Assembly (NCBI RefSeq): GCF_035594765.1
Contig: NW_026943818.1
Location: 20,038,724-20,102,723 of the forward strand
Reading direction: 5' to 3'
DNA length: 64,000 bases
From: Anolis carolinensis
Lineage: Eukaryota
Position 1 is the first letter of the stretch, and each line of letters starts with the position of its first letter. Under the pieces are notes generated by a model. That model was not told the origin of the DNA and did not search any database. It saw nothing but the letters and a program-made list of their open reading frames with translations. Shown here one piece after another: positions 25,856 to 27,540 of this stretch. A program made the position numbers and the translations under genes.

Positions 25856-26162
25856 GTGCGTTCAACGTCTTCTTTCTCCCCTTGATGTTTGTATCCACAC
25901 TCGGTGAACCTTTGAGCATTTGTGAGCGCAGCCGCCGGCCTTTCATGTGCTGGCCTTCCCCTCCGTTTCCCTTCTTGCTCTTTTCCTGCTTCCTTTTGCT
26001 CTGCAAAGCCCCTTTCCCTCTCTGTTTCCAATTGGGATCTTCCAACTATGATTTGTTTATTTTAACTTACTATATACTTGAGTATAAGCCGACCCGAATA
26101 TAAGCCGAGGCACCTAATTTTAACACAAAAAAACTGGGAAAACATTGACTCCAGTATAAGCC

Positions 26163-26830
26163 GAAGGAAATGTCCCCAATATTATCATCGCAGTGAGTAT
26201 TGATAAGAGCAATAGATGTACAGTATCTCCCTGTTCACCTTCTTGGTTGGTAGGCATTTAATTTAAAAATCATGCCGTTTAATTTTAATTATATTTAATA
26301 TAAATTTTAAAAAATTAAAGAATCACTTTATTTATTATTTATTTATTTACTACATTTATATCCCGCCTTTCTAACCCCGAAGGGGACTCAGAGCGGCTTA
26401 CAAATTAAATTTACATACAGTATTACAGTAGGGTCTCACTTATCCAACATAAATTGGCCGGCAGAATGTTGGATAAGCGAATACGTTGGATAATAAGGAG
26501 AGGTTAAGGAGAAGCCTATTAAACATCAAATTAGGTTATGATTTTACAAATTAAGAACCAAAACATCATGTTATACAACAAATTTGACAGAAAATGTAGT
26601 TCAATACGCAGTAAGGTTATGTTGTAATTACTCTATTTACGAATTTAGCACCAAAATATCACGATATATTGAAAACACTGACTACAAAAATGTGTTGGAT
26701 AATCCAGAATGTTGGATAAGTGAGACTCTACTGTATATTATTAGCATAGCACAATACTGGCGTTAAATTACTATATTGTACTATATCAACATATTGTAAT
26801 ATTATTAGTAATATTACATGTAATATAGAA
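26163..26830 (+). pseudogene. Inverted copy of the 3' 30 nt of RFC2 exon 3 plus the start of RFC2 intron 3, inside EIF4H intron 6
   Basis: Reverse complement of ~53800-54157. The exon part gaaggaaatgtccccaatattatcatcgca|gtgagt is identical. A MITE at 26426-26733 is present only in the copy. Confidence 0.88.
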
Positions 26831-26869
26831 TTAATGTTATATTGCATTAATTAGTATTATATCGTATTG

Positions 26870-27265
26870 GCACAGCTGGCTAGTAACCAGCTGCAATAAA
26901 TCACTACTGACTGAGAGATCATGAGTTCAAAGCCCGGGTCGGGTTAAGCCCTCAATCATTAAATAGCCTGGCTTGCTATTTACCTAAGCAGCCCGAAAGA
27001 TAGTTGCATCTGTCAAGTAGGAAATTTAGATACGCTTTATGCGGGAGGCTAATTTAACTAATTTACAACACCATAAAGATGCCAGCAACACGTGGAAAGG
27101 AATGAGGAAGTACAGCACTCGGTGTCACTTGTGGATGATGAAGCAACAGCTCCCCCTGTGGCCGGAATCGAGCATACCCTCATGAAAGCTGGAAAATGTT
27201 AAAATTGCCGCTGTGTGTCTATACTGTATGTTGTTTGTCTGATGGCATTGAATGTTTGCCACATA
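26870..27265 (+). mobile_element. SINE-like element (related fragments at ~18690-18915 - and ~56415-56580 -)
   Basis: B-box-like gagttcaaagccc; sequence shared with other copies in the window. Confidence 0.6.
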
Positions 27266-27266
27266 C

Positions 27267-27540
27267 CGTATATACTCAAGTATAAGCCGACCCGAATATA
27301 AGCCGTGGCACCTAATTTTACCACAAAAAACATGGGAAAACATTGACTCCAGTATAAGCCAAGGGTAGTAAATTTCAGAAATAAAAACAGATACCAATAA
27401 AATTACATTAATTGAGGCATCGGTAGGTTAAATGTTTTTGAATATTTGCATCAAGCTCTAATTTAAGATAACACTGTCCAACTCTGATTAAATCATTCTT
27501 CTCATCTTCTTCAATATAAATGTCCTTATGTATCCTTATA
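27267..27540 (+). mobile_element. Tigger/pogo-like element left end (truncated duplicate at ~26070-26164; related minus-strand piece at ~63470-64000)
   Basis: ta|ccgtatatactcaagtataagccgacccg terminus, repeated in the window. Confidence 0.6.

Follow-up and report, generated by a model that had tools for sequence, protein, structure and literature searches.

A single piece of RFC2 lies inverted in EIF4H intron 6 of Anolis carolinensis, joined to a TcMar-N4-like transposon end and likely copied during break repair

EIF4H intron 6 contains a transposon end joined to inverted RFC2 sequence

We analysed a stretch of 64,000 nucleotides of the Anolis carolinensis genome (hereafter the window) that carries EIF4H and, in the opposite orientation, RFC2. 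EIF4H was recognised by its exon 2, which matches PDB 2dng, and seven exons were found on the + strand; RFC2 was recognised by the exons flanking the sequence of interest, which match 6vvo_B residues 39-61 and 76-111. Our numbering of RFC2, by which the exon between these two is called exon 3, presumes one upstream exon. EIF4H exon 6 (25706..25855, +) ends in the donor AAG/GTGCGT at 25856, and the coding part of exon 7 (28783..28925, +) is the last coding exon found. All exons found for EIF4H and RFC2 are in order, and an inversion scar was rejected on this ground. Elsewhere in the window, positions 1199-6800 consist of a long array of tandem repeats whose period is about 73-77 bp, and a tandem cluster of the AT-rich repeat of RFC2 intron 3 lies immediately upstream of EIF4H exon 1 (11727-14445).

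Within intron 6, unique EIF4H sequence is followed by a TA and the left end of a non-autonomous transposon similar to TcMar-N4_AC (copy A; 26068..26164, +), which comprises about 97 element bases (95 nt at 26070-26164, 2 nt being missing at the tip of the inverted repeat). Copy A runs into a copy of the end of RFC2 exon 3 (26163..26192, +; 30 nt, all identical), of which the initial GA is common to the transposon, and then into a copy of the start of RFC2 intron 3 (26193..26425, +), which includes the donor GTGAGTAT, unique intron sequence and the first part of an AT-rich repeat. The rest of this repeat (26734..26868, +) is separated from the first part by a MITE with a TA duplication (26426..26733, no strand assigned), the inverted repeat of which is that of TcMar-N7_AC/N8_AC and the length of which is nearer to N7. 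Next comes a SINE-like repeat (26869..27263, +; 5262 candidates) that lacks its whole tail and, at its start, about 11 nt. It is followed, at a TATAT of the SINE, by a TA and a second TcMar-N4-like element, of which the first ~285 bases are present and the right end is not (copy B; 27264..27548, +). A LINE-like repeat, present as a 3' piece that ends in an A-rich stretch (27553..28113, +; 648 candidates), 29 aa of which gave no match in Pfam, and a shortened high-copy repeat (28155..28596, -; 4820 candidates), possibly Helitron-like, complete the series. A transposon right end, a continuation of the element from base 100, a further continuation of the RFC2 piece and a sense-strand SINE tail were each sought in EIF4H intron 6 and not found.

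The copied sequence derives from RFC2 and occurs once

Local alignment within the window showed that 26163-26423 plus 26734-26868 is the reverse complement of RFC2 positions 54157-53751. The source (53751..54157, -) covers the 3' part of RFC2 exon 3 (54169-54128), the donor at 54127 and intron 3; its copy contains the last 30 nt of the exon, the donor and the start of the intron. The original prediction of such a copy, ending near 26830 and matching ~53800-54157 once the MITE is removed, was borne out, the copy being about 40-50 nt longer than proposed. Copy and source differ by 17 mismatches in 396 columns (4.3% divergence), distributed over blocks of 154, 107, 98 and 37 nt as 5+4+4+4, and by one 1-nt gap, one 10-nt gap (a deletion) and the 310 nt of MITE plus TA. 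The first 53 nt of the copy are unchanged, and the 30 identical exon bases with the donor GCA/GTGAGT, as noted previously, fall within this start.

The similarity is not confined to the AT-rich repeat: the unique part of the copy matches RFC2 at 97% over 157 nt (E 8e-68), and a search of the 1.85-Gb genome returned two matches from two candidates, namely the copy itself and RFC2. A pattern spanning the chimeric junction matched once in the genome with one mismatch allowed. The genome-wide search suggested earlier for further transposon-RFC2 chimeras therefore gave a single locus and no amplification, and at this stringency no transposed copies with distinct target duplications were found. The presence of unique intron sequence had been taken earlier as a sign of a copy made at the DNA level and not a retrocopy; intron alone, however, does not exclude an unspliced RNA as template.

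The AT-rich half is likewise derived from RFC2, as judged from its sequence. Copy and source are identical at 223/234 positions of this half, whereas the best of 29 other copies of the repeat family reaches 94% identity to the copy, and two rare bases are common to copy and source, at 26420 (present in 2/29 family copies) and at 26762 (1/29); beyond 26762 the copy contains no strongly diagnostic base. When changes in the 234 repeat columns were polarised with the 29 family copies, 7 were derived in the copy and 4 in the source. As an observation on the repeat itself, an identical MITE-to-AT-repeat junction recurs in nine loci (L106, L107, L109-L113, L115, L116), which therefore form part of a composite element that is larger and has been amplified.

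The inverted arms of the MITE measure 27 nt, and a doubled TA is present in the copy only and not in the source. It is nested inside the RFC2 copy and therefore younger, in agreement with its earlier description as a later insertion. Dating the order of events by divergence failed: the MITE lies 6.0% from its consensus and the branch of the copy measures about 3%, although the MITE must be the younger of the two.

Copies A and B belong to a TcMar-N4-like family and are most likely independent insertions

The family of copies A and B consists of elements of 630-700 bp (the reference copy has 632 bp) with a TA target and 2,759 candidates in the genome; in 29 loci the elements lie 2.5% from the consensus. 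Novick et al. 2010 (PMC3014272), in the part of the paper available to us, describe TcMar-N4_AC as having a TA target, the inverted repeat CYGTATATACTCGAGTATAA, a length of 661 bp, more than 1,000 copies and a divergence of 2.3% from consensus. The two families match in inverted repeat, target, size, copy number and divergence. The same text calls N4 Tc2-related and names N11 and N17 as the families with Tigger-like ends (PMC3014272). Of the ~95-bp "Tigger-like" left end proposed at 26070-26164, the left end was thus confirmed, while a Tigger identity was rejected in favour of the Tc2-related TcMar-N4_AC.

Copy B begins at 27266 with element base 1. It had been read as the same transposon end restarting at 27267 beyond the captured sequence. 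A second left end does exist there, but it represents a different sub-lineage and sits in a TA of the SINE. The A-type variant occurred in 19/29 loci fetched with A and in 0/29 fetched with B; over ~95 comparable columns the two copies have no derived base in common; and one CpG has mutated in opposite ways, to TG in A and to CA in B. A local duplication of the transposon end was rejected on the lack of common derived bases and the different sub-lineage variants. Because of the same lack of derived bases in common, the opposite CpG changes and the TA site inside the SINE, copy B is most likely, on this sequence comparison, an independent insertion into the SINE and not the return of a repair fork. 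Among other copies of the SINE, 2/19 carry a TA-targeting element at the position of copy B's TA.

Copying during break repair is the likely origin of the RFC2 piece

At the left junction, transposon and RFC2 have exactly GA in common. The element usually reads GAGGG where RFC2 reads GAAGG (4/5 bases); a GAAGG variant of the element, which would give 5/5, was present in 10/30 sampled loci, a sample preselected for a changed base at this place. The right junction, with 1 nt of overlap or none, may be secondary and not original. Base ~97 of the element was considered as a breakpoint hotspot. All 30 fetched loci with a changed base after ~97 stay inside the element; by eye, none of the 100 matches listed (of 179) switches to foreign DNA at base ~97, as against about 4 among the 100 matches listed (of 225) for a control base. 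A 27-nt deletion that begins at this place is a subfamily trait, and together these results led us to reject the hotspot. No stable DNA hairpin ending at the break was found over 150 nt (-7.8 and -9.1 kcal/mol, values taken without shuffled sequences).

We consider it probable that a single 406-base RFC2 piece, now inverted in EIF4H intron 6 and attached to a TcMar-N4-like transposon at base ~97 of the latter, was copied during the repair of a break in or at this transposon from an RFC2 template 28 kb away, and that it is neutral. Copy A would have inserted at the TA at 26068, and a break would have formed either within copy A or when copy A was excised. Through 2 to 5 matching bases, the end at base ~97 may then have annealed to RFC2 exon 3, about 400 bases would have been copied, and the end would have been rejoined. 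As the nesting shows, the MITE inserted into the RFC2 copy afterwards; the SINE, copy B and the LINE-like piece would have inserted separately, and one deletion or more would have taken away sequence to the right of the SINE, copy B and the LINE-like piece. Two histories can be envisaged. Either the break occurred inside copy A, the right arm of which was later lost in a deletion that also cut copy B and the SINE, or copy A was excised and one-sided synthesis was aborted, as described for P elements in the available part of Chan et al. 2010 (PMC2895639), where synthesis-dependent strand annealing (SDSA) was aborted and completed by end joining; the fly event was induced, whereas excision in the anole is a hypothetical step.

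The repair reading is favoured because the copied sequence is unique and present as a single copy, and because its source, in a genome of 1.85 Gb, is found on the very same contig at a distance of about 28 kb. The bases common to transposon and RFC2 at the left junction, the changes on both branches and the two rare bases common to copy and source also speak for it. The proximity of the source is a stronger sign of mechanism than the 2-nt junction match, which is expected by chance at 16% of junctions and, together with the doubt about the right junction, weakens the case. It is weakened further by the fact that piece and SINE abut in the same sense with a 1-nt overlap, as a chimeric retro-insertion would, and neither an empty nor an intermediate allele turned up. 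Such an insertion, in which reverse transcriptase jumped from the 5' end of the SINE to RFC2 pre-mRNA or nearby DNA while inserting into copy A, would account for the shared sense and for a SINE that is short by only ~11 nt, and the accessible portion of a recent report (10.1101/2025.02.02.635956) describes 5' chimeras of LINE-1 in sense orientation. We nevertheless regard this origin as unlikely: an RNA template leaves the 28-kb distance to the source unexplained unless the RNA was nascent, and 4/19 other SINE copies also keep 6 or fewer of 12 leader bases, a proportion biased upward by a query without the leader. Neither a tail nor a target duplication remains at the SINE.

The repair reading also rests on its fit, in size, in copy number, in its cis source and possibly in short microhomology, to cases in the consulted parts of Pace, Sen, Batzer and Feschotte 2009 (PMC2671141) and Tan et al. 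2021 (PMC8277862). The former catalogued 824 human repair-mediated duplications with a donor within 5 kb, of which 4 had partial exon/intron pieces as donors, and among 1,136 donors 58 lay farther away on the same chromosome, distant cases being called less certain. As in that set, the anole copy is single-copy DNA from the same chromosome, a few hundred bases long, at a transposon and possibly with short microhomology; it is longer than 50 bp and found at exactly one other place, as that study required. In contrast to the core set, its donor is 28 kb off, which places it in the distant same-chromosome class, and the transposon does not resume past the insert. The distance exceeds both the 5-kb class of Pace et al. 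and the 15-kb class of Tan et al., which again tempers the repair reading.

Tan et al. ascribe single-copy Pack-TIRs to gap filling and report for them a median of 224 bp, a median microhomology of 2 bp and exonic sequence in 13.4% (PMC8277862, as far as available). The EIF4H insert resembles these in its TcMariner element, cis source, single copy and identifiable parental copy, but Pack-TIRs need arms on both sides and the EIF4H case has the left arm only. By that definition it is not a Pack-TIR. Of the original proposal of a Pack-type capture by template switching during gap repair in cis, copying in cis during repair thus persists as the best reading, and the Pack-type label is dropped for want of a right end.

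The lizard row of Tan et al. gives 0 Pack-TIRs and 0 annotated TcMariner elements, so that lizards were in effect unsurveyed there, and the genome set of Pace et al., as given in the available text, has no lizard. Neither RFC2 nor EIF4H appears in 12 supplementary files of Tan et al. (PMC8277862), our literature search found no report of an EIF4H/RFC2 duplication in a lizard, and the accessible text of Novick et al. 2010 (PMC3014272) reports DNA capture in hobo and in a single Helitron family but mentions none in TcMar-N4_AC. Our best reading is a new instance of an ordinary kind, a repair-mediated duplication at a transposon end. As it stands its weight is limited, more than 800 such duplications having been catalogued in human, some with exons and splice sites (Pace et al. 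2009); it would extend the process to a lizard, a group in effect missed by both surveys, and one-armed captures of this type would, from the available descriptions, escape the filters of both. The changes on the copy and source branches (7 and 4 in 234 columns) are close to the 2.3-2.5% by which the TcMar-N4 family differs from consensus; the capture may date from the active period of this family, these counts being too small for proof.

Splicing predictions for the copied donor in EIF4H

Splice sites were scored with matrices that are crude, as they derive from 14 donors and 15 acceptors of the window. The copied donor scored 7.2, compared with 7.5 for the donor of EIF4H exon 6, and 7.2 or more was reached by 16 other GT sites in 13,368 EIF4H intronic bases. 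What had been called a strong orphan donor therefore scores like these decoy sites. A 38-nt frameshifting cryptic exon (26155-26192) had also been proposed. Its acceptor has 5/15 pyrimidines and scores -6.5, against -0.2 to 13.7 for the 15 real acceptors, and instead of a long frameshift the exon would read GTA TAA, so that translation would end at its nt 3-5, 33 nt upstream of the last junction. For nonsense-mediated decay (NMD), more than 50-55 nt must separate the stop from the last junction, nearer stops usually escaping, so NMD is not predicted for this exon. It lacks both a usable acceptor and the stop distance expected of a poison exon. The further suggestion that EIF4H intron RNA mimics RFC2 pre-mRNA found no support; the copy is in RFC2-sense orientation and therefore cannot base-pair with RFC2 RNA.

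Upstream of the copied donor, the most promising acceptor is a native pyrimidine-rich stretch (25986..26008, +; 13/15 pyrimidines) ending in AG at 26007-26008, the score of which, 8.5, is within the range of real acceptors. Its use would give a 184-nt exon, and use of the donor as the end of exon 6 would give a 337-nt extension. In both predicted forms a stop at 26101-26103 lies 89 nt before the junction, far enough for NMD by the distance rule. Acceptor 26008 or the exon 6 extension is, on these scores, a better predicted route than the 38-nt exon.

An NMD-coupled brake on EIF4H, with the copied donor joined to acceptor 26008 or ending exon 6, could be argued from the fact that the same donor works in RFC2, from its score near that of the real exon 6 donor, from the similar donor GCA/GTAAGTAT employed by EIF4H exon 3, from the score of acceptor 26008 and from the unchanged first 53 nt. 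We hold it to be improbable, given the 16 intronic GT sites that score equally or higher, the small numbers of sites behind the matrices, and a P of about 0.2 for 53 unchanged bases by chance, by which the excess conservation is not significant. A bolder version, in which an active Tc2-type MITE, on excising, picked up a working RFC2 donor that, with acceptor 26008, became a new NMD-coupled switch tuning EIF4H in the lizard lineage, appears very improbable. Were the captured donor spliced, the locus would carry more weight, since a translation factor gene would then have gained a regulatory exon recently and at a time that can be dated. The RFC2 copy is probably neutral, because its donor score is ordinary, the short exon has no good acceptor and conservation shows no significant excess.

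The lowest-scoring sites among those of the two genes were the EIF4H exon 5 donor CTG/GTAGCA (24509) and the purine-rich acceptor of RFC2 exon 4 (53491). EIF4H exon 5 is alternatively spliced in mammals.

Support for the assembled junctions

Four public runs, all in the form of contigs, were compared with positions 25600-28050. A contig of run X1 (record 1) spans the junction between intron and copy A and continues 31 bases beyond it; the transposon/RFC2 junction at 26163 was spanned by none of the 32 contig pieces listed, next to which there were 110,988 more. Of 24 runs listed, 17 contained at least half of the 77 words sampled, and the best six runs contained 0.73-0.78 of the words compared with a ceiling of ~0.72 if the copy were absent, a weak hint. 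In X17 and X18, which are possibly RNA runs, the unique intron was covered and 26174-26255 had no depth, an uninformative difference as filters drop records; in X1 and X10 the depth at 26256-26337 was about twice that of the unique intron, depth here not being a measure of copy number. An assembly artefact or misplaced haplotype, to which the unbridged junction among the contig pieces listed might point, is highly improbable, mainly because of the 4.3% divergence with changes on both branches and the MITE with its own TA duplication nested in the copy only, and in keeping with the 10-nt deletion and, weakly, with the word counts of the six runs.

Other arrangements of TcMar-N4 left ends

Several arrangements of the TcMar-N4 family were observed in the fetched loci. 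Left ends occur in tandem as units of ~110-119 bp, each made of bases 1-~99 and a short later piece before the next restart (L027 480-1600, L079, L069, G000:C9:17502549-17503703 and G000:C4:3200716-3201574). In L027 nine such short units precede a full TcMar-N4 element, and L089 contains units of ~47 bp that correspond to the first 47 bases of TcMar-N4. These arrays possibly represent the birth of a satellite from a transposon end. A subfamily (L063, L075, L081) is without 27 nt directly after the third subterminal repeat; 924 exact matches were obtained for this form and 1,481 for the usual one. In L073, L077 and L086 the element starts anew within its own sequence, at a TA around base 147 or 119, which looks like insertion into a copy of itself. 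L004 1500-2900 contains a 699-bp unit (the left 344 bases, a MITE and the upstream flank) followed by a second start with an identical flank. Near the right end of the element, an internal copy of the family's left inverted repeat (L024 1997-2037; bases 498-540 of the reference element) suggests a nested origin of the family.
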